From a virus: a DNA stretch of 29,457 nucleotides. A program made the translations under genes and the position numbers. Below, piece after piece: positions 2,982 to 29,457 of this stretch (the first letter of the stretch is position 1; the number at the start of each line of letters is the position of its first letter). Where the stretch lies: UHGV virus genome UHGV-1280367; one strand, written 5' to 3'. Under the pieces are notes generated by a model, which ran no database searches, had not been told where the DNA came from, and saw nothing but the letters and a program-made list of their open reading frames with translations.

Positions 2982-4232
2982 GTGCTTACCGATACAAAAT
3001 TAAAGAACCTCAAGCCACAGGACAAACTGTACAAAGTTTCCGATCGTGACGGGCTGTATGTAGCTGTGCTTACGTCAGGTACGGTCTCGTTTCGCTATGA
3101 CTACCGTATCAACGGTCGCCGCGAAACACTGGTAATCGGGCAGTATGGGCGTGACGGTATCAGCCTGGCAGAAGCGCGAGAAGAACTGATTGCTGCAAAG
3201 AAGCTGCTTAAAGCAGGCCAGTCGCCGGCTGCGGCTAAACGTGACGGTATCAAAAAGATTCGTGGTGCCGAGACGTTTGCGGTACATACCGACAGTTATA
3301 TGAAACACGTCATCCTGGCTGAAAGTACCCGCGCAATGAAGCAGGCAGTGATCGACCGTGACATACTTCCTGTTCTTGGCAACAAAATGATGACTGAAAT
3401 TACCACATCGATGGTTCGTGATTTGTGTGACCGGATTGTCGAACGCGGTGGTCGGGCAACAGCTGTACAGGCCAGGGAGATCATCAGCAGCGTATACCGT
3501 CACGCCAATGACCGTGGTCATGGTTTGTTTAATCCTGCGGCTGACATTAAACCTTCGTCTATCGCCATATTTAAACCACGAGAGCGAACACTGACACCAG
3601 AAGAAATTGGCCTGTTCTTCCGCACGCTGGATGCCATTGGTGCTATGGGCACTATGAAAATGGCTTTAAAGCTGGTGCTTATCACTATGGTTCGTAAAGG
3701 CGAATTCACCAACGCAACGTGGGATGAAATAGATTTTAAAAAATGGACATGGACAATTCCTTCAGACCGCATGAAGGGAAGCCGGGCGCACGTTATTTAC
3801 CTGCCTAAACAGGCTCAGGATATATTGATCGGGTTGCAGATGTGCGCTGGTGGAAGTGAATATCTGGTTCCTGGTCGTTACAATTTCCGGAAGCCATTAT
3901 CTAATGCCGCGCTGAACTCTCTGATCGACAGAACGGTGAAAATAATAAATGAAGATGGTGAGCATATTCAGGGCTTCACCGTACACGATATGCGCCGTAC
4001 AGCCAGTACGTTGTTGCATGAGGCTGGTTATCCTTCAGACTGGATTGAAAAGGCTCTGGCACATGAGCAGAAAGGTGTGCGCGCCGTATATAACAAAGCG
4101 GAATACGCCAGACAGCGCGCCTACATGTTGCAGCAGTGGGCCGATATGATCGATTCCTGGATTGACGGGGAGCATACGGATCTGATTCCGTTCTCCCCGT
4201 CGAAGTTTGAGAAGTGGATGGCGGGGGAATAA
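2982..4232 (+). CDS. int: Tyrosine integrase (P4-like, with N-terminal arm-binding domain)
   Basis: 416 aa, GTG start. The N-terminus MLTDTKLKNLKP...DGLYVAV and a C-terminal catalytic region with conserved R, H-x-x-R and Y residues fit the phage integrase family. Confidence 0.85.
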   Translation: MLTDTKLKNLKPQDKLYKVSDRDGLYVAVLTSGTVSFRYDYRINGRRETLVIGQYGRDGISLAEAREELIAAKKLLKAGQSPAAAKRDGIKKIRGAETFAVHTDSYMKHVILAESTRAMKQAVIDRDILPVLGNKMMTEITTSMVRDLCDRIVERGGRATAVQAREIISSVYRHANDRGHGLFNPAADIKPSSIAIFKPRERTLTPEEIGLFFRTLDAIGAMGTMKMALKLVLITMVRKGEFTNATWDEIDFKKWTWTIPSDRMKGSRAHVIYLPKQAQDILIGLQMCAGGSEYLVPGRYNFRKPLSNAALNSLIDRTVKIINEDGEHIQGFTVHDMRRTASTLLHEAGYPSDWIEKALAHEQKGVRAVYNKAEYARQRAYMLQQWADMIDSWIDGEHTDLIPFSPSKFEKWMAGE

Positions 4233-4235
4233 CGT

Positions 4236-4430
4236 TTAATTATTCTGCTGATTTTCTTCCATCTCGGCTTCTGCTGCCAGTGATTCAATTTTATCTGTGA
4301 ATATTGCTGACAGTGTTGCAAATTCAGCATCAGTGACAGCGGGAATTGGAACAAACCTGATCCCGCTGTGTGCAAGCATGTTTGCAGTTTCAAGGCATTT
4401 TCTTAAATCTGCTGGTGATGCCCTGTTCAT
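4236..4430 (-). CDS. Small hypothetical protein (64 aa), translationally coupled to the methyltransferase
   Basis: Internal ATG at 4430 of ORF 4236..4550 overlaps the methyltransferase stop (ATGA). Acidic C-terminus. It converges on the int stop with a 3-bp gap. Confidence 0.4.
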   Translation of the reverse strand: MNRASPADLRKCLETANMLAHSGIRFVPIPAVTDAEFATLSAIFTDKIESLAAEAEMEENQQNN

Positions 4431-5077
4431 GCTGCACGCTCCCGCCCCTGGTTGTCTGTTGGTGACAGCGGAGTATTGCTGAATGCATTTGTTAATCTGG
4501 CAATATCCAACGCGTATCCAGGGTGTAGTTGCACTGCCGGGTCTTCGCACTGATTACCCCAAACATCGAAACCATGAGACGACTGGCGGGCGAACAGTTC
4601 AATGCGAGAAACATCGCCTAACAATTGCACAAGTTTTTCACGAACGATATCTGGTTTTCTTGAATGCTCAAGCCGCGGTGCGGTAAATGACTGAACGATC
4701 CCTGCATTAATGCGCGTAGGTAGTTTTCCCTTTACCGCAAACAGGCAATCTTCACTATTGGCGCGAGTCATGTGCCCCATACCCATAACCAGTTTATCTG
4801 GTTGTCGACTACCACATTTTATCCACGTGAAGCCCTTCATGGTCATCAGACGGAATCCCCAGGATTCAACAACTTTTAGTGCTTCGAGTGGTTGTGTTGG
4901 CACCCACCACATGGCCAACAGACAGTTTTCATCGGCCAAATCCCACACAGGAAGGCGGCAGATATCCAGCACACTCATAACCGGATATTTAAAACCGGCA
5001 CCGCGATTACCATCTGCGGCTTTGTCCCGGTATACCCAGGGTGGATCTGCATAGATTAGTGTGTATTTCTTAGTCAT
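4427..5077 (-). CDS. MT-A70 family N6-adenine DNA methyltransferase
   Basis: 216 aa. N-terminal YADPPW catalytic motif and overall pattern typical of phage orphan Dam-like methylases. Confidence 0.75.
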   Translation of the reverse strand: MTKKYTLIYADPPWVYRDKAADGNRGAGFKYPVMSVLDICRLPVWDLADENCLLAMWWVPTQPLEALKVVESWGFRLMTMKGFTWIKCGSRQPDKLVMGMGHMTRANSEDCLFAVKGKLPTRINAGIVQSFTAPRLEHSRKPDIVREKLVQLLGDVSRIELFARQSSHGFDVWGNQCEDPAVQLHPGYALDIARLTNAFSNTPLSPTDNQGRERAA

Positions 5078-5369
5078 AAACCACCCCGCAACATCCTATG
5101 CCGCTATAGTCGCCACGGCGAAGGCCGTTACCTTTTGTGATACATTGGTCCCTGCGAACCGCGATCCTTGCACGCTCAACATCACCAGAAGCAACATCCA
5201 TACACTGAAGCCAAAGGTGGGCGGCAATGCGGAACTGCCCTTTTTTCTCTCTTTCAATCGCGCGTTTTTCGATCTCTATCGCCGCAGGAGTAACGGCAAC
5301 AACCTTTGAAGGGCTGCGCATTGAAACCTTGTTCATGTGATATTTTTCAAGTCGGCTTAACTTTCTCAC
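5070..5369 (-). CDS. Hypothetical protein
   Basis: ORF overlapping the methyltransferase start by 8 nt; start is uncertain (GTG at 5369 or ATG at 5336). No recognisable motif. Confidence 0.35.
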   Translation of the reverse strand: MRKLSRLEKYHMNKVSMRSPSKVVAVTPAAIEIEKRAIEREKKGQFRIAAHLWLQCMDVASGDVERARIAVRRDQCITKGNGLRRGDYSGIGCCGVVYD

Positions 5370-5478
5370 TTAATCCAACCCTCTCTGAAAATTAATGCCA
5401 GCAGATAAAGCCATGCAGAAACAGAGGCCAGGAATAAGTACCATCCTGACCATTTGCTCCAGTGCCTTAGCAGCACAC

Positions 5479-5727
5479 TCATGCCGCGTTGCTCACGGGA
5501 CGATATACACGTTGCTGAACAGGAGGTTTTTTACCCTGGAACTCTGCCGGGCTTGCTGCCTGACGTTCATCAAGCCAACGCTCAACTTCATCACGGTTCC
5601 ATGCGCAGCGTTTATCGGTGATATACCAGCGTTTAGGAAATTCCCCTGCGCGCTCCATACGGTCGATAGTGCTCCATGACAGTGGCACCACCGCCATGAG
5701 TTCCTTCTTACCTAATGCACCTTTCAT
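5479..5727 (-). CDS. AlpA-family DNA-binding protein (putative excisionase or regulator)
   Basis: 82 aa; the segment LSWSTIDRMERAGEFPKRWYITDKRCAWNRDEVERWL matches the AlpA/Xis-like helix-turn-helix pattern. Confidence 0.65.
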   Translation of the reverse strand: MKGALGKKELMAVVPLSWSTIDRMERAGEFPKRWYITDKRCAWNRDEVERWLDERQAASPAEFQGKKPPVQQRVYRPVSNAA

Positions 5728-5776
5728 AAATACCTCTCTTGGTTGCAGTGCGGCGCGCGTGGCGCCGCGGTGGTGG

Positions 5777-6799
5777 TTACTCGAATTCTGGACGCATATC
5801 GTTAAGCGTCATCATGAATTTTTGGTGATATTCATCACCGAGCTTGTCAGCCATGGTGTTAATTTCATTTTCAGCGCGCTTGAACATCGTTTTTGCATCT
5901 TCAGCAGATGGATCCAGGCTATTAAGTATCGCGATGATATATTCTCGAGCTTCTTCTCGTTCTGAATCTGAAATTGGCGATAGGTGTTGACGCTCATCGT
6001 CAACTACGGAATATTCACCAGTGATAACAGCTGCGTTATCTTGGCTAAGTCCAGCTTCAGCGCGCTCATCCATAACAACAGCCTTCTGCATTTCAATAGA
6101 AACAGGAAGATATTTGAACAGTCGGCGAATTACTGTTTTTTTAGCCATCTCATCGAAGTGATCAACCCATGGGCCACTGCTACCGGCTTTGCTCAGTGCA
6201 CGAACTTTCTCAACGTCTGCCCGGCTCATAACTTCAAATTGGACTCCGCCATCTTTCAGTCGTGCAACGGCGTAAACGTGCGTTAATTCTCCGCGGTCAC
6301 CTGTTTCGCAAGGTAAATGCTCGAGCGTTTCTTCCAGGCCGTATGAGTAGCTGAATTTGTCGTTTGTATGTACGGTACGAGCCGAGATACTCAGGATCTG
6401 CCCAGAGCGGCGGGCAAGGTCAATCATTCCGCGATAGCCGATAATCAGCTGTGCTTCTGTAGATACGGTTTCCCATCTTCCATTTACTTTCTGGCGTTTG
6501 TCGAACGGTATCAGGTAAGCGTGTCCAAGAGCTCCGCCTGGTTCAAGACCCAATTGGGCACATTGCATAATTGCCCCCAGGAAGCTGGCTTGGTCGCATG
6601 ATGCAAGTTTTGGAACCTTTCGGATCTCTGTGGTTGCTATGCGCGCCAGACGGTCTGCTGTCATGTGCTTTGGAAGTGCCAAAGCCATCTGAGCTTTAAT
6701 TTTTGGGTCTGCCAGAAGTCCGGCCAGAGTTGTTGGTTTCTCATTATGATGTGCAACTTGGTTACCGGTAGCCGCTGCCTTAAGTGCATTGATAGACAT
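5777..6799 (-). CDS. recT: RecT-family single-strand annealing recombinase
   Basis: 340 aa; blocks such as HMTADRLARIATTEIRKVP, QLIIGYRGMIDLARRSGQI, THVYAVARLKDGG.QFEVM and AKKT.IRRLFKYLPVSIE closely follow E. coli Rac RecT as I recall it. Confidence 0.85.
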   Translation of the reverse strand: MSINALKAAATGNQVAHHNEKPTTLAGLLADPKIKAQMALALPKHMTADRLARIATTEIRKVPKLASCDQASFLGAIMQCAQLGLEPGGALGHAYLIPFDKRQKVNGRWETVSTEAQLIIGYRGMIDLARRSGQILSISARTVHTNDKFSYSYGLEETLEHLPCETGDRGELTHVYAVARLKDGGVQFEVMSRADVEKVRALSKAGSSGPWVDHFDEMAKKTVIRRLFKYLPVSIEMQKAVVMDERAEAGLSQDNAAVITGEYSVVDDERQHLSPISDSEREEAREYIIAILNSLDPSAEDAKTMFKRAENEINTMADKLGDEYHQKFMMTLNDMRPEFE

Positions 6800-6808
6800 T
6801 TTTTCTCC

Positions 6809-7708
6809 TTACTTCATTCTGAAGACGCGTTGTGTCGTTGTTGTTTTGAATTTTTCGAATAACTCAGGGTGTACTGACTGGAATAGCTTCTGGTCGAATC
6901 TGTTGCTGATCTGAGATTTCCATGTGCAGAGCGGCTTTCCGTCCAGGGTCAGGACTGAGTGCTCTTGCATGTACATCTTCAGCTTCTCTTCTGATATAGC
7001 TATTTCTTCTTCCAGTGATTTTCTGCGTGACTTCATGTCTCGTAGATCGTTGAATAGTGCGAGTGCCTTTCCGTCAGCCTCGATACTTGTACCGGCATCT
7101 TTCTCAAACATCAGTGATACATCGCTTACGCTGGTAGCTTCCGGCGGGTTAAGATTTTTCACTCGGTCCCAGAAAGCGATTTCTTTTTCTAAGATCGCCT
7201 GGATAGTTTCTTCATCACGCTCAACCCGATAGATTCGGAAGTCGTCGCCACCGATAAGCACACCGAAAACGCATACCTGTTTGTTTGTAACCATCAACCC
7301 GTGCATGGCCTGGGCCGTGTAATGCACAGGAATTGCATCTGTCTGGATTTCTCCCCATTCTTTGGCTTTGAACGGACTAACTGTTTTGATCTCAATGTTC
7401 TCGCCTGACGCTGCTTCTGCATCGATCTCAGCTGCAATAAAATCGTAATCACGGTGGATATAGCGGTTTCCGCGATGAACGATTTCCATCCCTGTTTCCT
7501 CAGAAAGCAGGTCTATTACGTATGGCTCCATACGCTGGCCACGCGTGAAAACTTTCTGCTTGCTTGGGTCTACTGGTTTGACACGTGGCTGGACCTTATC
7601 CAGATAAACCTCAAGCGGGGTGCGCCATGGGCTAATTCCAAGAATCCCTGCAACATCGCTTCCTCCGATGTATTTTGTTCTATCCATGATTCCAGCGTTC
7701 CGCATCAT
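6809..7708 (-). CDS. YqaJ-like (lambda-Exo fold) recombination exonuclease
   Basis: 299 aa. N-terminal IGGSDVAGILGISPWRTPLEVY is the YqaJ hallmark. Sits immediately upstream of recT as the expected exo/annealase pair. Confidence 0.7.
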   Translation of the reverse strand: MMRNAGIMDRTKYIGGSDVAGILGISPWRTPLEVYLDKVQPRVKPVDPSKQKVFTRGQRMEPYVIDLLSEETGMEIVHRGNRYIHRDYDFIAAEIDAEAASGENIEIKTVSPFKAKEWGEIQTDAIPVHYTAQAMHGLMVTNKQVCVFGVLIGGDDFRIYRVERDEETIQAILEKEIAFWDRVKNLNPPEATSVSDVSLMFEKDAGTSIEADGKALALFNDLRDMKSRRKSLEEEIAISEEKLKMYMQEHSVLTLDGKPLCTWKSQISNRFDQKLFQSVHPELFEKFKTTTTQRVFRMK

Positions 7709-8004
7709 GCCGCGTCCCTCTGCCCATCAATCTGATCAGCCAGATCCCAGCGGGCGATAATTGCCATTGCCTCGCGACGGTAGGCATCCATCAGTTCTTC
7801 GAACTCAGGGCTGTCTTTAGCAGCCTCCAGTACTTCCTGACGAACGCCTTTGCCTGTTACAACGTCGAAAGTTGAGGACAGTTGATGAAGTCGGATGCTC
7901 TCAATCAGTTCAACTTGTCGGTCATATAGCTGTTCTGACAGGCGGTAGTCCTTGTCGAATGCCAGCATGATTTTTTGAAGATTTTTCTGCTGATTAACGT
8001 TCAT
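7705..8004 (-). CDS. Hypothetical early protein
   Basis: About 100 aa from the ATG at 8004 (the track ORF extends to 8019). Overlaps the exonuclease start; no recognisable motif. Confidence 0.4.
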   Translation of the reverse strand: MNVNQQKNLQKIMLAFDKDYRLSEQLYDRQVELIESIRLHQLSSTFDVVTGKGVRQEVLEAAKDSPEFEELMDAYRREAMAIIARWDLADQIDGQRDAA

Positions 8005-8007
8005 TAT

Positions 8008-8159
8008 CAGCCCTCCCATATCTCGTTATCGTTGGCCACATCGCGAGCTTCTTTGCTGACGAAAGCCCACTTAATGCCTTCCTGTAAGGTGCGGAACTTC
8101 CAGCTCATGAATCCGCATGCAGTAACGCAGTACCAACCGTTGATGATTTTCCACTGCAT
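8008..8159 (-). CDS. Small hypothetical protein (50 aa), first gene of the leftward early operon
   Basis: Found by manual translation of the minus strand: MQWKIINGWYCVTACGFMSWKF..., stop 3 nt before the next gene's start. Below the ORF-track length cutoff. Confidence 0.3.
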
Positions 8160-8312: not shown

Positions 8313-8897
8313 TTATTGTTTGCTTTTTTCGTTCTGGTTGATGACAAATTCAATGTAACTTTCGATCTTTGCTTTCTCGGTTTCGGGTAACAATGCGTAG
8401 CGCGAGCGGTCATAGTTGATGGTCGCAGGGTCGTGCGGGTGAATCAGTAATTCATAGCCGTGACGCCCGAATGCGGATGCCACATTCTCCAGGGTGGAAA
8501 TGGAAACGCTAACCTCATTGTTTAACAGGCGGCTGATTGTCACCTGGGCGACGCCGGATGCGCGGTGAAGTTTTCCCTGTGTTGAAAGGTCGCGGCTTTC
8601 GCTCATCCAGCGTTCCAGGTTGTGAGCCGCCAGCTGACCAATGTCGCTTGGGCCGACAGGCTGAAAACCTTCCTGAGAAAGCGAGCGATCGATATCAAGC
8701 CAGTTACGGGGTTTATTGGCGGCAGCTTCAATTTTTCGCGCAACCTGGTCGCCGATAACCTTCTTGCCAAGAGCCCAGCGGTTTACCAGATTTGCCTGAG
8801 TTCCAAGTTTTTCTGCCATCCGCGTCTGAACACCATTGAATTCACGGTCGATCAAGTCGTTGAGATTTTGCCTGCGGACGTCCTGGATACTTTTCAT
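8313..8897 (-). CDS. Phage repressor (CI-like), two helix-turn-helix regions, no S24 peptidase domain
   Basis: 194 aa. XRE-type HTH pattern near the N-terminus and a second HTH-like segment around residues 110-150. Divergent from the Cro-like gene across an operator-rich intergenic region. Confidence 0.65.
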   Translation of the reverse strand: MKSIQDVRRQNLNDLIDREFNGVQTRMAEKLGTQANLVNRWALGKKVIGDQVARKIEAAANKPRNWLDIDRSLSQEGFQPVGPSDIGQLAAHNLERWMSESRDLSTQGKLHRASGVAQVTISRLLNNEVSVSISTLENVASAFGRHGYELLIHPHDPATINYDRSRYALLPETEKAKIESYIEFVINQNEKSKQ

Positions 8898-8952: not shown

Positions 8953-9015
8953 TTACCCAACAGGTAAATGCACCTCATAGGTAACTATCCTTGATTTTTG
9001 TTACCTTATGGGTGA
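8953..9015. promoter_or_regulatory. Immunity-region operator cluster, three palindromes (8953..8967, 8970..8984, 9001..9015)
   Basis: TTACC-caaca-GGTAA, GCACC-tcata-GGTAA and TTACC-ttatg-GGTGA in the 154-bp repressor/cro intergenic region, arranged like an OR1-OR2-OR3 set. Confidence 0.55.
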
Positions 9016-9051
9016 ATATTTATTATCTGAAATAAATATCAGGCAATAGCT

Positions 9052-9282
9052 ATGAGCGATAACGGACATTTCGATTTCAAAAAGCACTGGCTTGCACTTA
9101 CTCCGGATGAGCGTGAAGCCTTCGCACAGGAAGCCGGAACGACGAGTCACTATATCCAGACTCACTTAACAGGTAAGCGCAAAATGCCAGGTAAAGTATT
9201 GATGAATGGGCTTTTTAAAGCCTGTAAAACAAGACAATGGCTGCGCTCAAAAGCAGAACTGGCATACTTCTTCTACTCATGA
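9052..9282 (+). CDS. Cro-like (YdaS/Cro family) DNA-binding protein
   Basis: 76 aa divergent from the repressor. HTH-like segment LTPDEREAFAQEAGTTSHYIQTHLTGKRKMP. Confidence 0.6.
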   Translation: MSDNGHFDFKKHWLALTPDEREAFAQEAGTTSHYIQTHLTGKRKMPGKVLMNGLFKACKTRQWLRSKAELAYFFYS

Positions 9283-9304
9283 TATCCAGCCACAACCCTC
9301 TGTA

Positions 9305-9328
9305 GACCGCCATCCGGCGGTCTTTTCA
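9305..9328 (+). terminator. Rho-independent terminator downstream of the cro-like gene (tR1-like position)
   Basis: Hairpin gaccgcc-atcc-ggcggtc followed by ttttcat. Confidence 0.6.
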
Positions 9329-9337
9329 TATCTATTC

Positions 9338-9352
9338 GCACCTTAAAGGTAA
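9338..9352. promoter_or_regulatory. Operator-like site GCACC-ttaaa-GGTAA
   Basis: Shares the core accttaaaggta with the site upstream of int. Lies between the tR1-like terminator and the zinc-ribbon gene. Confidence 0.4.
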
Positions 9353-9432
9353 CAAAAAACCAAATATGGTTGATCTTTTTTTTGTGTCAGCACAAAATAA
9401 CCGTAATCCCAATACTAATAACAGGGATTACC

Positions 9433-9648: not shown

Positions 9649-10464
9649 ATGAGCAGACATGCAACAGATTGGGCCTGGGAGACAGATCCAGGTAGCTCGT
9701 CATTAAAGCTCATACTGCTCTCGATGGCTGACAGAGCCGATGAATATAACCTCTGCTACCCCAGCATAGAACGCCTCGTTAAAGACACTTGCCTGAATAA
9801 AAAAACCGTGCAGGCCGGGCTTATATCGCTCATGAAAATGGGGCTTATTTCAGATACCGGAGAGAGAAAGGGAGCGACGAAAAGAGTGCGGGTTTTCTCT
9901 CTTAATATAACCAAAAACGGGAACATTAAAGGCAACCGGGAAGGGGGTAATGAACCCGAAAACGGTAATGTTACCGAAAACGGGAATATACCCAAAAACG
10001 GGATGTTGAATGATCCCAAAAACGGGATGTTGAATGATCCCAAAAACGGGATCCAGAACCAGTCATATAACCAGTCATTTAACCAAGAGAGGGAGAGCAG
10101 GACAAAAACCGGGGATTCTGTTCCTCATGACCCCGGCGCAAACAACGCCGTGATGAATAACTTTGTTCCTCCTGGTGGGCCAGGGCAATTAGGCAAATTT
10201 GTCATGCATGAACAATGGCAGCCATCAGATGACTTTCTTCGGAAAAGCTCATTGCAGGGGATCTACCTGGACAGTCTGCCAACGGCACAGGAACTTGCAG
10301 AGTTCAGAATTTACTGGATGGCTGAGGGTAAGGCATACCATCAGGCACAGTGGGAGCAGAAGCTGGCAAGGCGGCTGCAGATTAGCAGACAGAAGCAATC
10401 AACATTACCTGATAACAACGTTCCGCACTGGAACAGCCCTGAAGCGTGGGAGGATTTCTTGTGA
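9649..10464 (+). CDS. Replication initiator (lambda O-like, N-terminal HTH, DnaT-like C-terminus)
   Basis: 271 aa. The N-terminus resembles the phage replisome-organiser N-domain; the gene contains DNA iterons; it is followed by a lambda P-like gene. Confidence 0.7.
   Translation: MSRHATDWAWETDPGSSSLKLILLSMADRADEYNLCYPSIERLVKDTCLNKKTVQAGLISLMKMGLISDTGERKGATKRVRVFSLNITKNGNIKGNREGGNEPENGNVTENGNIPKNGMLNDPKNGMLNDPKNGIQNQSYNQSFNQERESRTKTGDSVPHDPGANNAVMNNFVPPGGPGQLGKFVMHEQWQPSDDFLRKSSLQGIYLDSLPTAQELAEFRIYWMAEGKAYHQAQWEQKLARRLQISRQKQSTLPDNNVPHWNSPEAWEDFL
9911..10049. repeat. Origin-like iteron array: six direct repeats of CC(A/G)AAAACGG
   Basis: Copies start at 9911, 9956, 9974, 9992, 10016 and 10040 (spacings 45, 18, 18, 24, 24 bp). 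They encode the peptide repeats PKNGMLND and lie inside the initiator gene, as in lambda ori. Confidence 0.7.
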
Positions 10465-11246
10465 ACAACGTTTTTACCGCGATACAAAACCGTGACGGAG
10501 AAGCCCTTTCTCGCATGTCAGGTTATGAGCATCAGTACGTCAACAATGACAATGTGGTGAACATGTCAGCAGAGAGGCTTGTTGATGCCCTTTTCAAACA
10601 GCTGAAACAACTGTTTCCGGCGGCAGTGGTAACCAACCTGAAGACGCCAGAGCAGGAAGTTGCTGCAAAACAGCAGTGGATTGCTGCGTTTGCCGAAGGG
10701 GGAATACGTACCCGTGAACAGGTTTCTGCTGGTATGCGCCACGCCCGCGCCAGTGAATCTCCGTTCTGGCCGTCGCCAGGGCAATTCATCAAGTGGTGTA
10801 AAGACAGCAAGATGGTTCTTGGCGTCACCATTGACGATGTGATGGCGGAGTTTCACCGGTACAGCAAGGAAAAAAGTTTATATCCTGGTGGTCCCGAAAG
10901 ATTCCCGTGGCGGCATCCGGTTATGTACTGGGTCGTATGTGATACACGCCGTGCAATGTATCAGCGCCAGCTTAGCGAGATTGAGGTTGAGAAACACGCG
11001 CGCAGGCTGCTCGATGATTGGGCGAAAAAGGTGGCTTCCGGACAGCAGATACCCGATCCGGTGATCAGCATACAGGCAAAGCCAGAACCCATGAGTACAC
11101 CTCCGGACACAGGGAGAGACGTTTACCATCCACCAGGGCGAAGTTTCGGGTGCATGCCTAACGCCGCCACCCTGGGGGGAATAACACCGGCGCAGTGGCT
11201 GATGGAGGAATACAGGCGGGGAAAGGCGGCAGGATTTATCAAGTAA
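10446..11246 (+). CDS. Replication protein P-like helicase loader
   Basis: The block FPAAVVTNLK...QQWIAAFAEGGIRTREQVSAGMRHARASESPFWPSPGQFIKWC parallels lambda P (FPAS...RRQWVLAFRENGITTMEQVNAGMRVARRQNRPFLPSPGQFVAWC) as I recall it. Start could be GTG at 10446 or GTG at 10461 overlapping the O stop. Confidence 0.8.
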   Translation: MGGFLVNNVFTAIQNRDGEALSRMSGYEHQYVNNDNVVNMSAERLVDALFKQLKQLFPAAVVTNLKTPEQEVAAKQQWIAAFAEGGIRTREQVSAGMRHARASESPFWPSPGQFIKWCKDSKMVLGVTIDDVMAEFHRYSKEKSLYPGGPERFPWRHPVMYWVVCDTRRAMYQRQLSEIEVEKHARRLLDDWAKKVASGQQIPDPVISIQAKPEPMSTPPDTGRDVYHPPGRSFGCMPNAATLGGITPAQWLMEEYRRGKAAGFIK

Positions 11247-11708: not shown

Positions 11709-11769
11709 ATCGACGATCTTTTTAGTTATCAATGTAATCAATAAGTTATGTGGATAAGCGAGGGTAAAG

Positions 11770-13168: not shown

Positions 13169-13169
13169 C

Positions 13170-13454: not shown

Positions 13455-13455
13455 G

Positions 13456-13647: not shown

Positions 13648-13649
13648 TT

Positions 13650-17893: not shown

Positions 17894-17904
17894 AATCTCA
17901 CCTT

Positions 17905-17930: not shown

Positions 17931-18092
17931 ACTGGAAGCAATGAGTTATGCCTTCCGTGGCTGTACTGGTTTACAGCATGAAGTCATCGCAATGGCGTCC
18001 TGCTGTAAAAAGGGCGGTGATAGTCCTTCAAGGGAAACCATCACCGCCAAGCCCCCTGGAACTTCTGGCATCACGGTCCTTAGGCGTGATTC

Positions 18093-20790: not shown

Positions 20791-20792
20791 TC

Positions 20793-21500
20793 ATGAATTT
20801 ATTTGAGCGTTTGCTGTATCGCCGTCTTTGCAATGAGCAATCCACTGAAGGTGGCCAGGCAGATACAGCTTCAACGGGAGCAACTGAAACCACTCAGGGC
20901 TCGGGTGAAATGCAGGAGCAAACCCAGTCGCAGGATAACTCCCAGGGGACTGACTCTGAGAAAGGTTCTGAAGCTCAGAAAACTGAGGGAGAGCTTGCTG
21001 CTGAAAAAGCCAATACCGAAGAAGCAGAAAAGGATAAGAAGCCAGAGGGTGCGCCTGAGAAGTACGAGTTTCAGGCTGCCGAAGGCGTAGAGCTGGATAC
21101 AGAAGCGTTGAAGGAATTCGAGCCGGTGGCGCGAGAACTTAACCTGACCAACGAGCAAGCGCAAAAGCTGGTTGATGCTTATCCGAAGATTCTGGCAGGT
21201 GTTCAGCAGCGCCAGGCAGAAGCCTGGCAGAAAACAACCGAGCAGTGGGCTGCGGATGTAAAAGCTGACAAAGAAATCGGTGGCGACAAGTTGATTTCTA
21301 ACCTTAGCGCCGCACAGCGTGCGCTTGACCAGTTCGGGACACCTGAACTCAAAGAATATCTGAACACCACCGGGCTGGGTAATCACCCTGATCTGGTCAA
21401 AACGTTCGTGAAAATCGGAAAGGCGATGTCTGAAGATGGCATGGTCACCGGTGGTAATGAAGGCCAGCGTAGTGCGGCCGAAGTGCTCTATGGCAAATAA
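20793..21500 (+). CDS. Scaffolding protein
   Basis: Highly acidic, Glu/Gln/Lys-rich, predicted-helical protein between the portal and capsid genes. ATG at 20793 with an AGGAG ribosome-binding site. Confidence 0.65.
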   Translation: MNLFERLLYRRLCNEQSTEGGQADTASTGATETTQGSGEMQEQTQSQDNSQGTDSEKGSEAQKTEGELAAEKANTEEAEKDKKPEGAPEKYEFQAAEGVELDTEALKEFEPVARELNLTNEQAQKLVDAYPKILAGVQQRQAEAWQKTTEQWAADVKADKEIGGDKLISNLSAAQRALDQFGTPELKEYLNTTGLGNHPDLVKTFVKIGKAMSEDGMVTGGNEGQRSAAEVLYGK

Positions 21501-22552: not shown

Positions 22553-22990
22553 ATGATCACCGACAAACTGTTGATGTTCTCCGAAGCACAGGCGGTAACT
22601 GATACCGCTGCTTCTACTGACGTAATCGATCTCGGTCCAATTGACGGAAAACGTCGTGATATCGGCGTGGGTTACCCGCTTGAGTTTTGGGCGCTGGTTA
22701 ACACAGCCGCCGCAGCAAGCGGTGATGCAACTGTAAACATCCAGTTGCAGACGAGTGAGGATAACAGATCATGGACCACTATTTATGATAGTGGTGCACT
22801 GGCAAAGACCACCCTGACAGCAGGTAAACGAGTTGTTTCTGCAAAGGTGCCTGCCGGTGTTCAGCGATATCTGCGTGTTAACTACTCCGTCGCAACTGGC
22901 CCACTAACGGCTGGCGAATTCACTGCTGGTATCAGTCTTGATGTTGATGCCAATACGCCGTATCCGATCCGCTCAAAAGTAACTGGTTAA
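22553..22990 (+). CDS. Putative capsid decoration or accessory structural protein
   Basis: 145 aa with a good ribosome-binding site (GGAGAAAG), directly after the capsid gene. Function inferred from position only. Confidence 0.35.
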   Translation: MITDKLLMFSEAQAVTDTAASTDVIDLGPIDGKRRDIGVGYPLEFWALVNTAAAASGDATVNIQLQTSEDNRSWTTIYDSGALAKTTLTAGKRVVSAKVPAGVQRYLRVNYSVATGPLTAGEFTAGISLDVDANTPYPIRSKVTG

Positions 22991-23000
22991 GGTGATATCG

Positions 23001-23336
23001 ATGTCAGGTGAGAAACCAAGATACCGCGTTCTGCGCCTCTCTCATATCCATAACACTCTGTGGCCGGAGGGGGCAGAAATCGAATACGAAGGTGAGCCTG
23101 GTAGCGCACTGGAACCTGTTAACGATGCAGCCAGACAGGCAAAAGCAAAAGTTGCAGGAAAAGTGTCAATGGCAGCAACCAGCACCAAAATCATCAACGA
23201 TGTGTCAGATGATGGTGAACTGGATAAGCTCCGTGAAGAGTACGAATTGCTCTTTAACGAGAAGCCACACCATAACGCCAAAGCCGAAACGCTCCGCGAG
23301 AAGATCGCAGATAAGCGTAAAGAACTGGGCGTGTAA
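23001..23336 (+). CDS. Hypothetical structural-module protein
   Basis: ATG at 23001 with an AAGGTGA ribosome-binding site (the track ORF starts at a GTG at 22992). Charged, helix-prone. Confidence 0.35.
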   Translation: MSGEKPRYRVLRLSHIHNTLWPEGAEIEYEGEPGSALEPVNDAARQAKAKVAGKVSMAATSTKIINDVSDDGELDKLREEYELLFNEKPHHNAKAETLREKIADKRKELGV

Positions 23337-23352
23337 GCCTCGCGGATCAGAC

Positions 23353-23376
23353 AAGGGGCTTCGGCCCCTTTATTGC
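23353..23376 (+). terminator. Terminator-like hairpin after the capsid block
   Basis: aaggggc-ttcg-gcccctt (UUCG tetraloop) followed by tattg; the T tract is short. Confidence 0.5.
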
Positions 23377-23386
23377 AGGAGTGTAT

Positions 23387-23710
23387 ATGGAACTCGTAAA
23401 CCTCAAAACCGGCACTGACAGCTACCAGGATGAGAGCGGAGAAACCAGAACTCGCGATGAATACCCGTGGGGGCTGTGCATCACTCTTAATAACGACACA
23501 TTGAATAAGCTGAAGGCGCAACCTCAGGGCGTCGGAACAGAAGTGATGATAACTGCAAAGGCTGTTATTCGAGGCCTGTCTGCCAGAGAAACTGACGATG
23601 GTGTTAATCGCAGCGCCGATCTGCAGATCACTGATATGGCAATCGCTCCTGTTTCCGGTGATGTAGAAAAATCAGCGGCTGAAACTCTGTACGGCAATGG
23701 GGGTGAGTAA
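23387..23710 (+). CDS. Hypothetical virion protein
   Basis: ATG at 23387 with an AGGAG ribosome-binding site; stop overlaps the next gene's start. Confidence 0.35.
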   Translation: MELVNLKTGTDSYQDESGETRTRDEYPWGLCITLNNDTLNKLKAQPQGVGTEVMITAKAVIRGLSARETDDGVNRSADLQITDMAIAPVSGDVEKSAAETLYGNGGE

Positions 23711-24315
23711 TGGCCTCTGTAGTAGAGATCTGCAATCGTGCGCTGTCCAATATTGGCAACAGCCGCAGCATTAACAGCCTGACGGAAGCCAGCAAGGAAG
23801 CGGGGGAATGTTCGCTGCACTTTGAGGCCTGCCGTGATGCTGTGCTTTCTGATTTTGACTGGAACTTTGCTACCAAACGCGTGGCGCTTGCAGATACGAG
23901 CAATCCACCGCCTGACTGGGAATATGCGTACCAGTACCCGTCCGATTGTCTGCGCATTACTGAAATTATGCTTCCTGGTGTACGCAATCCAACAGCAGCA
24001 ATGCGCGTTCAGTACGAAGTTGGTGCAGACACCAACGGAACAGGAAAGTTGATCTACACAGACCAGCCGCAGGCATGGCTCAAGTATGTATCTCGCGTTT
24101 CAGATGTGAACATGTTTGATGCCATTTTTATGGAGGCGTTGGCCTGGCGTCTTGCGGCAGCTATTAACATGGCGCTGACTGGGAATGCAGACCTCGGTAC
24201 GTTTGCCCTCAATATGTACAATCGCGTGATTCTTAGTGCTGGCTCGCATAGCCAGAATGAATCACAGGAACCACAGCCACCGGTTGACGAGTTTACCATT
24301 GCGAGGTTGTCCTGA
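23710..24315 (+). CDS. Tail tubular protein A / adaptor (T7 gp11-like)
   Basis: 201 aa. Size, position before a gp12-like gene and an N-terminal pattern (ICNRALSNIGNSRSINSL) resembling T7 gp11. Confidence 0.5.
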   Translation: MASVVEICNRALSNIGNSRSINSLTEASKEAGECSLHFEACRDAVLSDFDWNFATKRVALADTSNPPPDWEYAYQYPSDCLRITEIMLPGVRNPTAAMRVQYEVGADTNGTGKLIYTDQPQAWLKYVSRVSDVNMFDAIFMEALAWRLAAAINMALTGNADLGTFALNMYNRVILSAGSHSQNESQEPQPPVDEFTIARLS

Positions 24316-26786
24316 TGGCTATCAGTTGGATCCAGCCCAGCTTTGCCGGTGGTGAGATTGGACCGTCGTTGTACGGTCGTATCGACATGGCGAAGTACCA
24401 GGTGGCATTGCGCAAGTGCGATAACTTTATCGTGCGGCAGTATGGCGGCGTTGAGAATCGACCTGGTACGCGTTTTGTCGGTGCCGCCAAATACCCAAAT
24501 CGGAAATGCCGCCTGATCCCGTTCCAGTTCTCGACTGTTCAGACCTATGCTCTGGAGTTCGGACACCAGTACATGCGCGTTATCAAAGATGGTGCGTTGG
24601 TGCTGAACAGCAGCAATGTTATTTATGAAATTGCCACGCCATATACTGAAGCCGATCTGTTCCGAATTAAATTTACGCAAAGCGCCGACGTGCTTACGCT
24701 GGTTCACCCGGCATACCCGCCGAAAGAGTTGCGCCGCTATGCGCATGACAACTGGCAACTGGTTGATGTGGTAACGAAGAACGGGCCATTTGAAGATATC
24801 AATATTGACGAGTCAGTGACGGTTTATGCCAGCGCCAGCACCGGGACAATTACGTTAACGGCAAGCGCCTCTATTTTTGGCGCGGAGCAGGTAGGCAAAT
24901 TGTTCTATCTGGAACAGCCTGCAGTGGATTCAGTGCCGGTATGGGAAACCAGTAAGAGTACGTCGATTGGCGATATTCGCCGTGCAGACAGTAACTACTA
25001 TCGCGCCGTTACAGCAGGCAAAACAGGCACTTTGCGCCCTTCGCATACAGAAGGCACATCATGGGATGGCTGGGGCGGATCCGGTGATGATGATACTGGC
25101 ATTGAGTGGGAGTATCTGCACAGTGGTTTTGGCATTGCCCGTATCACTGCTGTAAACGGCACTACTGCAACTGCCGAGGTGATTTCCTATATCCCTTCGC
25201 AGGTCGTTGGCGAGGATAATGCCAGCTATAAATGGGCTAAATATGCCTGGAACAGTGTTAATGGTTATCCTGGCACTGTTGTTTATTATCAACAACGTCT
25301 TTACTTCGCCGCATCGACTGCGTTCCCTCAGACTATCTGGGCCAGCCGTACCGGGGATTATAAGGATTTTGGCAAAAGCAATCCTACGCAGGATGACGAC
25401 AGAATTATCTACACCTATGCCGGACGTCAGGTTAATGAGATCCGCCACCTGATTGATGTCGGTTCGCTGGTGGCGCTGACTTCCGGAGGTGAGTACGTCA
25501 TCACCGGCGACCAGAACAAAGTGTTAACCCCATCATCATTTGCATTCAGCTCTCAGGGATCAAATGGCTCAAGCAACGTCCCACCAATTGCTGTGGCGAA
25601 TATTGCTCTGTTTGTCCAGGAGAAAGGCAGCGTTGTCCGTGATCTGGCCTACTCATTCGATGTTGACGGCTATCAGGGGAACGACCTGACCATCCTTGCC
25701 AATCATCTTTTTCAGAAGCACAGCATTGTTGACTGGTGCTTCTCGATAGTCCCTTACTCCAGCGCCTTCTGCATCCGTGATGACGGTAAATTACTGGTGA
25801 TGACCTATTTGCGTGATCAACAGGTTTTTGCATGGGCACCACAGTCCAGTACCGGAAAATATGAAAGCACATGCAGTATCAGCGAAGGCAATGAAGATGC
25901 GGTGTATTTCGTCGTTAACCGAACCGTTAACGGGCAAACAGTGAGATACATCGAGAGACTGTCTAGCCGTTTATTTACCAGCGATGAAGATGCTTTCTTT
26001 GTTGATTCTGGCCTTAGCTATGATGGAAGAAATACGTCTGACAGAACGATGACCATCACTGGTGGTTCTGGCGAATGGGATTATCGCGCGGAATATACAA
26101 TCAGTGTTTCTGGTGGTGCGTACTTCACCAGTAGTGATGTCGGCGCGCAACTACAGTTCCCTTATGTCGGAACTGATCCTGATACTGGCGATGAAGTGTC
26201 AAAAGAATTACGTTGCGACATTATTTCTGTAACCAGCAATACCGCTGTAGTGGTTCGTGCTAACAGGAACGTCCCGCCATCCCTCAGGAATGTGGCCACC
26301 ACGAACTGGCAGATGGCGCGCCGGACATTTGGAGGCCTGTCTCATCTTGAAGGCCAGACCGTAAACATTCTCTCTGATGCGAACGTGGAGCCACAGAAAG
26401 TGGTTTCCGGAGGTGCCGTCACGCTGGAATCTCCGGGGGCTGTAGTGCACATCGGCCTGCCAATAACTGCTGAATTCGAAACACTGGATATCAACATTAA
26501 CGGACAGGAAACGCTGCTGGACAAAAAACAGGTGATCCCGTCCGTTACTCTGGTTGTGAATGCCAGTCGCGGCATCTGGGCGACTACGCCCGGCGGTAAA
26601 TGGTACGAATATCCACAGCGTGAATTCGAGTTCTACGATGATCCTGTTGATGATGCTACCGGAAAAGTAGAAGTGAAACTGGACAGTAACTGGGGCAAAA
26701 ACGGACGTGTAAAAATCCGTCAGCTTGACCCGTTGCCGCTGTCTGTTCTTGCCGTTATTCCTCGCCTTACTGTTGGGGGATTCTGA
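24315..26786 (+). CDS. Tail tubular protein B / nozzle (T7 gp12-like)
   Basis: 823 aa. N-terminus MAISWIQPSFAGGEIGPSL parallels T7 gp12 MALISQSIKNLKGGISQQP as I recall it. Size and gene order are consistent. Confidence 0.55.
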   Translation: MAISWIQPSFAGGEIGPSLYGRIDMAKYQVALRKCDNFIVRQYGGVENRPGTRFVGAAKYPNRKCRLIPFQFSTVQTYALEFGHQYMRVIKDGALVLNSSNVIYEIATPYTEADLFRIKFTQSADVLTLVHPAYPPKELRRYAHDNWQLVDVVTKNGPFEDINIDESVTVYASASTGTITLTASASIFGAEQVGKLFYLEQPAVDSVPVWETSKSTSIGDIRRADSNYYRAVTAGKTGTLRPSHTEGTSWDGWGGSGDDDTGIEWEYLHSGFGIARITAVNGTTATAEVISYIPSQVVGEDNASYKWAKYAWNSVNGYPGTVVYYQQRLYFAASTAFPQTIWASRTGDYKDFGKSNPTQDDDRIIYTYAGRQVNEIRHLIDVGSLVALTSGGEYVITGDQNKVLTPSSFAFSSQGSNGSSNVPPIAVANIALFVQEKGSVVRDLAYSFDVDGYQGNDLTILANHLFQKHSIVDWCFSIVPYSSAFCIRDDGKLLVMTYLRDQQVFAWAPQSSTGKYESTCSISEGNEDAVYFVVNRTVNGQTVRYIERLSSRLFTSDEDAFFVDSGLSYDGRNTSDRTMTITGGSGEWDYRAEYTISVSGGAYFTSSDVGAQLQFPYVGTDPDTGDEVSKELRCDIISVTSNTAVVVRANRNVPPSLRNVATTNWQMARRTFGGLSHLEGQTVNILSDANVEPQKVVSGGAVTLESPGAVVHIGLPITAEFETLDININGQETLLDKKQVIPSVTLVVNASRGIWATTPGGKWYEYPQREFEFYDDPVDDATGKVEVKLDSNWGKNGRVKIRQLDPLPLSVLAVIPRLTVGGF

Positions 26787-27250
26787 TGATCGACGTTCAA
26801 ATTATTCCCGCTACCGAAGAGCATCTTCAGATGATTTTGCCGGATGTTCGTCAAGCTGATATTGACGAACTGTATGCGGTATCACTGATGACTACCGAAG
26901 ATGCGCTGCGTGTTGGTCTTCGCACTGCGACTATGGCCTGGTCAGGGTTCGCGAACGGAGAACTGGTAACCATGTTTGGTGTATCTCCGGCGTCAATGAT
27001 CGGTGGCAATGGTACGCCCTGGCTGGTCGGTACCAGCCATATTGAAAAATATCAGAAGACATTTCTGCGCCACTGCCGCCCTGTATTGCACCAGATGCTG
27101 GCAGTTTATCCGCGCCTGGAAAACTACGTCGACGAGCGAAACCATGTTGCCAAATCATGGCTGCACTGGCTTGGATTCAGGCTTGAAGAAGCCGCGCCTT
27201 ATGGTGCTCTTGGTCTTAATTTCCACAGATTTCACATGGAGAGAAAATAA
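26786..27250 (+). CDS. Internal virion protein (gp13-like position)
   Basis: 154-aa ORF between the gp12-like and gp14-like genes, translationally coupled (ATGA). Assigned by position. Confidence 0.35.
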   Translation: MIDVQIIPATEEHLQMILPDVRQADIDELYAVSLMTTEDALRVGLRTATMAWSGFANGELVTMFGVSPASMIGGNGTPWLVGTSHIEKYQKTFLRHCRPVLHQMLAVYPRLENYVDERNHVAKSWLHWLGFRLEEAAPYGALGLNFHRFHMERK

Positions 27251-27828
27251 TGTGTAACCCAGCCATCGCTTTGGTTGCCGTCACAGTGGCATCCACAGCC
27301 GCGTCAATGTACAGCCAGAGCAAGCAGGCAAAATACCAGTCAGCCATAGCTGATCGGAATGCTGAAATTGCTGAAGCTCAGGCACAGGATTCAATCAATC
27401 GTGGGAATATTGAAGCGGATCAGCGTCGTCGTGAAATGCGTCAACGCTCAGGTACTGCGGCGGCCACTATGGGGGCTACCGGTGCGGAATTAAGTAGCGG
27501 AACAGCTCTTGACGTTTTTGCGGATAATGCTCAGTTCGGCACTCTTGATGCGTTAACGACAGTGAATAATGCTCAGCGTGAGGCATATGGGTATCAGGTT
27601 CAGGGAATGAATGCTCAGGCACAGGGGGCTGCTGCTCAGTCGGCTGCTAAATCATCGATGACCAGCACTTTGTTAACGGCACCACTAAAAGCATACGGTG
27701 CATACCAGATGGGCGGCGGAACGTGGAGCCCGTTCTCTAAAGGAAGTACATCTGGTGGTGGGACGCCAATGCTATCTAACTCAGGTTTTATGAATTCTGA
27801 CTCCCGATTCAAAATAGGAGGTTACTGA
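27250..27828 (+). CDS. Internal virion protein B (T7 gp14-like)
   Basis: 192 aa. N-terminus MCNPAIALVAVTVASTAAS...QAK parallels T7 gp14 MCWAAAIPIAISGAQAISGQNAQAK as I recall it. Ala/Gln-rich. Confidence 0.55.
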   Translation: MCNPAIALVAVTVASTAASMYSQSKQAKYQSAIADRNAEIAEAQAQDSINRGNIEADQRRREMRQRSGTAAATMGATGAELSSGTALDVFADNAQFGTLDALTTVNNAQREAYGYQVQGMNAQAQGAAAQSAAKSSMTSTLLTAPLKAYGAYQMGGGTWSPFSKGSTSGGGTPMLSNSGFMNSDSRFKIGGY

Positions 27829-29457
27829 TGCCTGTTGTTCCTACTACATCCGGACGCCAGGTGCAAAGTCGTGGTGTGCAAACCGGTGGTTTTCAGACCT
27901 TCGATGTTCCTCAAGCAGGTCAGGTGCTGGCGAATGTCGCAGATCAGTATGCGGTGGCATATGGTGAAGCCAGGCAGAAAGCGAATGTTGCTATGGCCCA
28001 GGAGGCGTTACTGCAATTTAACCAATTTGCAGATGACCAGATTAACAACCCTGAAAATGGGCTGATTTCTAAACAGGGTAAAAACGCTCTTGGTCAGAGT
28101 GACGCTGTTATGAAAAATATGCAGGAAAGGGCTCAGGCATTATTAGGCTCAATCCCTGAAAGTGAGGAAAGGAATAAATTATCCTTTCAACTCCAGCAGT
28201 CTATGCAGTCTTATTACAATCAGGCACGTCGATATGAAGTTGGGCAGTTTCAGCAATTCCAAGATCAAACGTATTTGTCAGGAAATGCATTGGCTGTCAC
28301 TCAGTCTGCGGGGCTATATAGCGATAACCAAGCATTTGTCGATTTAGCCAAGCAGCGATTTGAATCTATTGATCAATACGCTGATGCGCATGGGCTTCCT
28401 GATGAGTGGCGTGTTCAGCAGAAAACTCAGCTCAAGGAACAAATGGGGCAGCAAGCATGGATAGGAAATATCGCTCAAAAATACAACGAGTTTCTTCAGG
28501 TTAATGGAGAGCCAGGGGATCTTGGTGGTGTGAGTCGTGCAATATCACATGGTAATTCATTGGATGCTCGTGGTTTACGTAATAATAACCCTGGTAATAT
28601 TGAAGCGAGCAAATCTAACCCGTGGGAAGGTCAGATCGGTAGCGATGGACGTTTTGCAACGTTTGCTACCCCTGAGCATGGAATCCGCGCGTTGGGTAAA
28701 AATATGTTGTCTTACCAGCGTCAAGGCTATGACACCGTTAGCGAGATTGTTAATCGCTATGCTCCGGCTAGTGATGGTAATAATACTGATGCTTATATTA
28801 GGGCATTGTGTGGTGAGCTTGGTGTTGGGGAGAATGATCAGCTTGATATCTCTAACCCAAAGACACTAGCTGCTTTATGTGCTGGGATTATTAAACACGA
28901 AAATGGCAGTATGCCTTATAGCACCGAACAGCTTGAAACTGGTATCTCGGCAGCCCTTGGTCTAACTAACCTTGATTCACCTAAGCGTTATACGGGCAAT
29001 GCGGCATTTGATGCTATGAGCCCTCAAATGCAAATACAGGCATTGAGGCAGGCTAATGAGCTGAGAAATCAGTACCGCCAGCAGTATGCGGACCAGCTTA
29101 GCACCGTAGTTAAAGATGCATATTCAGCCCTTGATGAAGGATTGAAACCTGAGAAGTTACCTTCTGAGGACGATTTTATCCGGGCCAATGGTCCGCGCAT
29201 TGGCGCTATGAAGTGGAAGGATATGCAGGCGCAGATACAATATGGAGGTGTCATTGGTGCCGCTAAAGACCTCACTCCAGAAGGACGACAAGACATTCTT
29301 GAACGTTTACGTCCACAGGATCCAAACGCTCCTGGATTTGCTGCTAACCAGCAACGCTGGGAGAAAATGCAGGCCAAATTTAAAGAGATGGATAGGGAGT
29401 GGGAGATTCAGCAGGGAAGAAACAGGTTCGTGTCTTCAATGCAAAATAACTTCCCGC
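27828..29457 (+). CDS. Internal virion/ejection protein (gp15-like), 3' end outside the window
   Basis: ATG at 27828 overlaps the gp14-like stop. I translated this frame by hand and found no stop before the window end (at least 543 codons). It is absent from the ORF track because it lacks a stop. Confidence 0.55.
   Translation, partial: MPVVPTTSGRQVQSRGVQTGGFQTFDVPQAGQVLANVADQYAVAYGEARQKANVAMAQEALLQFNQFADDQINNPENGLISKQGKNALGQSDAVMKNMQERAQALLGSIPESEERNKLSFQLQQSMQSYYNQARRYEVGQFQQFQDQTYLSGNALAVTQSAGLYSDNQAFVDLAKQRFESIDQYADAHGLPDEWRVQQKTQLKEQMGQQAWIGNIAQKYNEFLQVNGEPGDLGGVSRAISHGNSLDARGLRNNNPGNIEASKSNPWEGQIGSDGRFATFATPEHGIRALGKNMLSYQRQGYDTVSEIVNRYAPASDGNNTDAYIRALCGELGVGENDQLDISNPKTLAALCAGIIKHENGSMPYSTEQLETGISAALGLTNLDSPKRYTGNAAFDAMSPQMQIQALRQANELRNQYRQQYADQLSTVVKDAYSALDEGLKPEKLPSEDDFIRANGPRIGAMKWKDMQAQIQYGGVIGAAKDLTPEGRQDILERLRPQDPNAPGFAANQQRWEKMQAKFKEMDREWEIQQGRNRFVSSMQNNFP

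Follow-up and report, generated by a model that had tools for sequence, protein, structure and literature searches.

Identity and closest relatives

The stretch of DNA analysed here, in the following called the window, comprises 29,457 nucleotides of the UHGV virus genome UHGV-1280367. It contains the end of a tailspike-like gene, a lysis cassette, an attachment site, an integrase gene, a lambda-like early region, and genes for packaging, head, tail and ejection proteins. With high confidence the window can be described as approximately 29.5 kilobases (kb), about three quarters, of a temperate podophage genome of approximately 39-40 kb from the epsilon15/phiV10 group (Uetakevirus). The genome has the attP arrangement of the phage form, and since it is circularly permuted, the window begins in the tailspike gene and stops in the gene of the third internal protein. 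A first-pass annotation of positions 2982-29457 had proposed that lambdoid lysogeny, recombination and replication modules are joined to a T7-like virion module, and all genes listed in it could be found at the places given (Pfam, PHROG and open reading frame (ORF) coordinates). Lambda-like early genes are indeed combined in a mosaic with portal, tail and ejection genes that are distantly T7-like; this mosaic is already published and not rare.

For the comparison with known phages the region 2982-27900 was used as a megablast query against 50,697 phage records. The best match is Escherichia phage vB_EcoP_PAS61 (97.5% identity, 80% coverage). Phages phiv142-3, vB_EcoP_ZX5, HEMP4 and TL-2011b follow with 71-77% coverage at 97.5-98% identity, and phiV10 with 46% coverage at 98.1% identity. 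The nearest Salmonella relatives found are the phages 65FD and PAT1 (approximately 78% identity over 40% of the region). PAS61 is described as a temperate phage of 39,287 base pairs (bp), to which phiV10 and phiv142-3 are most closely related (PMC11522302). Both PAS61, according to its record, and ZX5 are classed in the genus Uetakevirus. The values obtained with PAS61 place the part of the genome that lies in the window within the genus-level similarity of approximately 70% or more (coverage x identity). The window also encodes an epsilon15-type capsid protein of the gp7 family (PF20911, E 5e-149) and a gp10-type staple protein (PF21628, E 1e-51), and it carries an integrase gene and an attP, as is characteristic for the temperate members of that genus.

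The annotation tables of PAS61, TL-2011b and the chromosomal prophage of E. coli MINF_2E are gene-for-gene collinear with the window. PAS61, phiv142-3, ZX5, TL-2011b and phiV10 agree with the window in gene order from int through the gp13-like gene, and in these phages, too, the lysis cassette adjoins int across attP. Differences are found in part of the accessory genes at 11.4-15 kb, in RecT and the exonuclease, which are longer in the window than in TL-2011b, and in the lysis cassette, where the window has an additional duplication of 336 bp which distinguishes it from the close relatives. The suggestion that phages of this organisation are comparatively rarely characterised is incorrect, as published isolates are 97-98% identical, the epsilon15 virion was treated by Hardies et al. 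2016, and approximately 10% of the complete E. coli genomes carry the virion module.

Packaging and head genes

The packaging, head, tail and ejection genes of the window are listed below with coordinates, strand and assignment (lengths in amino acids, aa).

15234-15908, plus, terS (Pfam Terminase_2, PF03592; phrog_51)
15905-17380, plus, terL (phrog_2, phrog_5902)
17471-17893, minus, 140-aa ORF of unknown function between terL and portal (phrog_4846)
18093-18169, minus, tRNA-Arg(UCU) (ARAGORN and Rfam)
18818-20497, plus, portal, 559 aa, T7 gp8 family (PF12236)
20494-20790, plus, Bbp19-like small protein (PF25181)
20787-21500, plus, scaffold-like protein, 237 aa
21509-22501, plus, major capsid protein, 330 aa, epsilon15 gp7/BPP-1 type (PF20911, E 5e-149)
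22553-22990, plus, Bbp16-type cement protein (one of the PF21190/PF21628 matches in 22553-23710)
22992-23336, plus, unknown protein
23381-23710, plus, epsilon15 gp10-type staple protein (PF21628, E 1e-51)
23710-24315, plus, tail adaptor, 201 aa, T7 gp11-like fold (PDB 8ck1_E connector, E 2.9e-26)
24315-26786, plus, tail nozzle, 823 aa, T7 gp12-like fold (PDB 8ck1_A 'Tail Nozzle', E 1.4e-217)
26786-27250, plus, candidate internal virion protein A, 154 aa, weakly gp13-like (phrog_308 'internal virion protein')
27250-27828, plus, internal virion protein B, 192 aa, T7 gp14 family (PF24072, 34.9 bits at a cut-off of 27; phrog_418)
27828-29457, plus, large internal (ejection) protein, 5' 543 codons, cut by the window end (phrog_1044, phrog_992)

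The portal reaches 623 bits against PF12236, compared to 379 bits for T7 gp8. In PDB it matches the portals of Cobetia marina phage Carin-1 (E 2.6e-179) and of cyanophage P-SCSP1u (E 2.5e-6). The major capsid protein is not of the T7 type; T7 gp10 is assigned to PF21703, and the scaffold family of T7 is PF05396. In PDB the solved structures nearest to the capsid protein of the window are 3j4u from BPP-1 (E 3e-128), 8cjz from Carin-1 (E 2e-87) and 3j40, which is epsilon15 gp7 (E 6e-85). Despite the classification with epsilon15, the capsid protein scores higher against Bordetella phage BPP-1 (431 bits) than against gp7 (289 bits). With epsilon15 the window shares the capsid and staple families, whose names are derived from epsilon15 gp7 and gp10, and the published T7 homologies of that phage fit the layout of the window. 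The likeness to BPP-1 covers the capsid and the Bbp16 and Bbp19 families, and that to Carin-1 the portal, nozzle and connector of the solved virion, although both of these phages have other hosts.

Three small genes (22553-23710) lie between capsid and adaptor and have no counterpart in T7. The RefSeq names 'Bbp16 family capsid cement protein' and 'capsid staple protein' which are used in relatives agree with our assignments. The 237-aa protein is assigned a scaffold role from its position and its acidic, helical composition; it matches no Pfam family and has no similarity to T7 gp9. For the same protein the phrog_458 label 'protease' was dropped, since no protease family or motif could be found.

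terS and terL are situated upstream of the portal gene (15234-17380 versus 18818-20497), as had been noted before, whereas the terminase genes of T7 follow the fibre gene. Neither subunit belongs to a T7 terminase family (PF11123 for gp18, PF22530 for gp19). For terL there is no Pfam match, no meaningful one at E <= 10 either, and nothing in the PDB sequence search. The 140-aa ORF and the tRNA gene downstream of terL (17471-18169) are flanked by terminator-like hairpins, and both are kept in the MINF_2E prophage. Apart from the tRNA, Rfam revealed nothing in the whole window.

Tail and ejection proteins

The particle genes follow T7 in order (portal, scaffold, capsid, adaptor, nozzle, gp13, gp14, large internal proteins), and the sizes are closely matched. 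For gp8 to gp14 the lengths in the window and in T7 are 559/536, 237/307, 330/345, 201/196, 823/794, 154/138 and 192/196 aa. Pairwise alignment lends no support to the T7-like patterns proposed before: BLASTP and phmmer comparisons of 16 virion proteins of the window with 13 T7 proteins (gp7.3, gp8-gp19) gave nothing significant. Profile and fold comparisons do reveal such a relationship. The portal and gp14-like proteins share Pfam families with their T7 counterparts, and the adaptor and nozzle share folds. A more permissive Pfam run (E <= 10) with the adaptor, nozzle, scaffold-like protein, terL and large internal protein gave no meaningful match save a weak gp13 signal; NCBIfam had no matches for ten virion or unknown proteins.

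The AlphaFold2 model of the adaptor has a pLDDT of 83.6. By Foldseek it matches the connector of Carin-1 (TM-score (TM) 0.82), LME-1 and then T7 gp11 (7box_M, E 5.6e-7, TM 0.56-0.58, 13% identity). The adaptor does not match the Pfam family Tube (PF17212), even at E 10, and in a PDB profile search with the adaptor alignment T7 gp11 was not reached; the fold search alone did so. The identity of 8ck1 was taken from the Foldseek description. The nozzle model (pLDDT 90.2) is 45% identical to that of Carin-1 (TM 0.91) and aligns with T7 gp12 at E 1e-20 to 1e-24 (TM 0.51-0.55, 11-12% identity). In profile searches the nozzle matches two other podophage nozzle proteins, and tail tubular protein B of cyanophage A4 is reached at 5e-10. 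No match was found to Pfam Phage_nozzle (PF25675).

The 154-aa protein matches PF11090 (T7 gp13) only weakly, with 13.7 bits at a cut-off of 25. An equally weak match is seen in 22 of 40 family members, and hhalign against T7 gp13 gave E 2.4e-4 at a probability of 44%. A homologue of the 192-aa protein is named 'virion core protein, T7 gp14 family' in RefSeq, and the PDB sequence search with the 192-aa protein gave nothing. The large internal protein contains a muralytic domain at aa 247-399 (nucleotides 28566-29024). In PDB this region matches the N-terminus of Gp29 (9vvp_L, a chain of 1295 aa, E 2e-35) and the endolysin 7q47 (E 2e-15). In T7 a SLT domain is located at the N-terminus of the gp16-type protein, whereas in the window the muralytic domain resides in the first large internal protein.

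Taken at the profile or fold level only, the portal, adaptor, nozzle and gp14-like proteins, and weakly the gp13-like protein, have a real distant kinship with T7 gp8, gp11, gp12, gp14 and gp13. The description of the whole virion module as T7-like thus applies to the portal, tail and ejection proteins only; it fails for the capsid protein (PF20911), the scaffold-like gene and both terminase subunits. Searches with the portal, gp12-like and gp14-like proteins, which the first-pass annotation had proposed as a check, led to PF12236, the T7 gp12 fold and PF24072, respectively.

It was earlier reported that epsilon15 gp12 is a homologue of tubular tail protein B with a strong match to the T7 group between hidden Markov models, that epsilon15 has homologues of the T7 internal virion proteins (IVP) IVP-A and IVP-B, that gp17 is an IVP-D homologue, and that gp15 and gp16 are candidates for IVP-C (Hardies et al. 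2016, PMC4819975). In the same study the terminase and capsid of epsilon15 grouped with siphoviruses, which marks a transfer between families. This grouping could be taken to mean that the structural module as a whole comes from a siphovirus or myovirus, or else from a P22-like podovirus, and the P22 gp10 fold is indeed found among the nozzle matches (8eap_D, E 4e-9). Such an origin is nevertheless hardly conceivable. The P22 match is far weaker than the T7-type matches, neither a tape-measure gene nor one for a tail tube or sheath was found in the window, and no tape-measure or major tail gene is present in the PAS61 record, in TL-2011b to 33.6 kb or in the MINF_2E prophage. The capsid gene is followed by adaptor, nozzle and internal proteins which match solved podophage tails strongly.

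The nucleotide identity to PAS61, phiV10 and the other closest relatives ends at approximately 27254. The gp14-like and muralytic genes (27250-29457) represent another allele, with 98.6% identity to EC.W1-9 and 78% to Enterobacter phage Tyrion. Position ~27254 is a mosaic breakpoint within the ejection-protein module.

Early region

Downstream of the integrase gene the early region contains the following features.

4236-8019, minus, leftward early operon (Pfam and PHROG matches)
4236-4550, minus, DUF1382 gene
4427-5077, minus, MT-A70 methyltransferase
5070-5369, minus, PerC-like protein
5479-5727, minus, AlpA-like helix-turn-helix (HTH) protein, possible excisionase
5777-6799, minus, RecT
6809-7708, minus, YqaJ exonuclease
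7705-8019, minus, gene of unknown function
8313-8897, minus, HTH_3 repressor (HTH_3, phrog_8)
8971-8985, 9000-9014 and 9339-9353, three copies of the operator-like 15-mer CACCYNWWAGGTAAC (0.02 expected by chance)
9052-9282, plus, Cro-like gene, 76 aa, divergent from the repressor gene (phrog_35)
9649-10464, plus, replication initiator (HTH_36, PF13730, and DnaT domain, PF17948)
9911-10051, iterons, six copies of the 12-mer CCVAAAACGGKA inside the initiator gene (0.01 expected by chance)
10446-11246, plus, lambda-P-family helicase loader (PF06992, E 1.5e-56)
11364-15237, plus, accessory and late-regulator genes (DUF1064, DUF7739, Ead/Ea22, DUF551)
14666-15007, plus, phrog_536 regulator

The order int, recombination genes, repressor, cro, initiator with internal iterons and P is that of lambda, and the loader belongs to the lambda P family. 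Lambdoid accessory genes (Ea22, DUF551, DUF1382, DUF1064) are present as well. In contrast to lambda, RecT and YqaJ take the place of Bet and Exo, and the virion genes are wholly different. The initiator has no match to a lambda-O-type family in Pfam, the repressor comprises HTH domains only in Pfam and lacks the S24 peptidase domain, and no ORF matched an N or Q antiterminator family in Pfam or PHROGs. The early region, whose modules had all been called lambdoid, is thus lambda-like in its arrangement, and three features typical of a complete lambdoid set are missing from it. A comparison of gene order with both model phages yields a T7-like virion order and a lambda-like early order.

All three copies of CACCYNWWAGGTAAC are confined to 8971-9353. 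Two HTH-like regions can be recognised in the repressor, a YdaS-like one at aa 21-61 and HTH_3 at aa 106-147. As the S24 domain is lacking, induction probably does not proceed via RecA-stimulated autocleavage. In the part of the genome that is not contained in the window, TL-2011b has genes for an Arc-like repressor and an Ant anti-repressor. A scan for promoters and terminators gave a result that was not above chance.

Nucleotide identities of 91-96% with HK620, ST104, Stx1/Stx2 phages and BP-4795 were found at approximately 12145-14670. The sharing of DNA with lambdoid, Stx and P22-like phages is restricted to these approximately 2.5 kb of accessory genes, and it is by this near-identical segment only that the phage belongs to the lambdoid gene pool.

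An explanation that would account for both halves of the window is a recent recombinational chimera of a lambdoid siphophage with a lytic phage of the T7-like kind (Autographiviridae). The lambda-like early order with its P homologue, the more than 90% nucleotide identity at approximately 12.1-14.7 kb with Stx, HK620 and P22-like phages, and the T7 families of portal and gp14 all fit to it. Against it, pairwise comparison revealed no similarity to any T7 virion protein. The adaptor and nozzle are only 11-14% identical to those of T7, which means that the relationship is ancient, the capsid protein and both terminase subunits belong to no T7 family, and the scaffold-like gene is without similarity to T7 gp9. 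The window phage is temperate by its integrase and repressor, while the T7 type is strictly lytic. A phage RNA polymerase was found neither among the 50-odd ORFs scanned nor in the annotations of PAS61, TL-2011b to 33.6 kb or the MINF_2E prophage. Finally, many phages and over 500 E. coli genomes keep the same full architecture. A recent chimera is very improbable, and this explanation is in practice refuted. The arrangement which had been noted as a mosaic is the one that phages of the epsilon15/phiV10 group conserve as their standard architecture, without a noteworthy recent junction.

Attachment site and left end of the window

The first-pass annotation had also remarked that the lysis cassette follows the tail fibre gene. 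That is correct, and the genes concerned are situated at 1-2686, to the left of the integrase gene and thus outside the range 2982-29457 given for that remark.

1-446, plus, tailspike-like receptor-binding gene, 3' end, 147 codons, frame open from base 3
529-2686, plus, lysis cassette (Pfam; E. coli prophages carry the same annotated genes)
529-942, plus, holin (Phage_holin_8/Phage_holin_3_7 among the Pfam matches of the cassette)
929-1237, plus, holin (same Pfam matches)
1563-2192, plus, endolysin of glycoside hydrolase family 19 (GH19; Glyco_hydro_19)
2189-2686, plus, DUF2514 Rz-like protein (DUF2514)
2774-2790, no strand, attP core ATTGAGTGGGAATGATT, identical to the 3' end of E. coli guaA and including the guaA stop codon
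2982-4232, plus, tyrosine integrase (Pfam Arm-DNA-bind_3, Phage_int_M and Phage_integrase; phrog_1)

The MINF_2E prophage sits between guaA and yfgI, with int beside guaA and the lysis cassette beside yfgI. Positions 2774-3000 of the window align with its attL and 2682-2790 with its attR, and the 17-mer core is common to both. Since 2682-3000 joins the attR-side and attL-side arms via the 17-bp core, the window carries attP and hence represents the excised or virion form.

These data also bear on the idea that the window is an integrated and possibly defective prophage, with 1-2981 as the left chromosomal flank. The region first noted begins at the integrase gene like the end of a prophage, and near-identical modules are mostly chromosomal. 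On the other hand 1-2686 codes for a tailspike end and a phage lysis cassette, the attachment site is in the attP arrangement, and every gene that was examined is intact. We consider an integrated prophage to be very improbable, and the interpretation of 1-2981 as host flank was rejected because this part encodes phage genes and the attP junction. In the chicken isolates E. coli GPEC1258 and GPEC1186 a chromosomal lysis cassette is contiguous with an integrase start, as seen with the window segment 464-3100. This attP-type junction suggests tandem prophages or another arrangement of integration.

The tailspike-like end and orf523 of coliphage K5 (AF322018) are 62.6% identical in aa sequence over the full 147 aa (tblastn, E 1e-44), and a distant blastn search with 1-560 gave no match in the phage collection. 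This suggests that 1-446 may be a tailspike receptor-binding domain exchanged with another coliphage.

Within the lysis cassette a perfect tandem duplication of 336 bp (1041-1376 = 1377-1712) spans the 3' end of a holin gene and the 5' end of the endolysin gene. The holin at 929-1237 and the endolysin at 1563-2192 stay intact, and a truncated endolysin ORF (1227-1397) arises. The relatives lack the 336-bp insert, which either arose very recently by duplication or is an artefact of the assembly.

Classification and proposed life cycle

Several points have to be set against the assignment to a temperate podophage of the epsilon15/phiV10 group. Taken singly, the closest relatives leave approximately 20-29% of the region uncovered; the parts concerned are accessory genes, the gp14-like gene with the next gene, and the tailspike end. 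About 10 kb, with the remaining ejection proteins and the tailspike N-terminus, lie outside the window. The scaffold and gp13-like assignments are built on position and weak signals, and the duplication in the lysis cassette, which is possibly an assembly artefact, is uninformative on viability.

Starting from the observed gene identities, family and fold memberships, repeats, attP core and near-identity to isolated phages, a life cycle can be proposed for the phage, for which stoichiometries and mechanistic steps are deduced from the protein families. Integration would take place by integrase-catalysed recombination between attP, at its 17-bp core, and the 3' end of guaA. The two-HTH repressor and the Cro-like protein are expected to compete at the three operator sites. 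For replication, the initiator would bind the six iterons inside its own gene and the lambda-P-type loader would recruit the host DnaB. terS and terL may then package the DNA into a capsid with HK97 fold of the epsilon15/BPP-1 type, which is presumably reinforced by the cement and staple proteins. The gp8-type portal would bear an adaptor of 12 subunits and a nozzle of six subunits with the folds of T7 gp11 and gp12. Upon infection the gp13-like, gp14-like and large internal proteins, one of them muralytic, would be ejected and form a channel across the cell envelope. Lysis of the cell is predicted to be brought about by the holins, the GH19 endolysin and the Rz-like protein.

It is possible, though doubtful, that the window phage represents a new species-level Uetakevirus, with its orf523-related tailspike domain and its non-standard gp14-like/muralytic allele, and that it might target a surface polysaccharide new to the genus.

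Prevalence of the virion module

Of 5426 complete E. coli genomes, 557 have a match to the 8.4-kb segment that runs from the portal gene to the gp13-like gene. The match spans at least 80% of the segment in 504 genomes, nearly always at 95-99% identity. The virion module is thus found in approximately 10% of complete E. coli genomes. For the nozzle family by itself, 18,311 cluster representatives (E <= 0.001) were counted in a set of 1.84 billion.

A confident label can be given to the window, namely that of a temperate podophage of the epsilon15/phiV10 type, and this has little import beyond correct annotation. Several genes that are 'hypothetical' in the records of the relatives can now be named, which are the adaptor, the nozzle, the IVP-A candidate, IVP-B and the muralytic ejection protein. 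The window also illustrates what has already been published, namely that the portal, tail and ejection set of podophages is an old and vertically coherent unit, which occurs together with capsid, terminase and early modules that have other origins.

When the segment 18818-27250 was compared with E. coli NADC1036 (NZ_CP076267.1), the module was seen in the chromosome and in a separate replicon record of 38,709 bp. The latter suggests an excised circular copy that was assembled beside the prophage.

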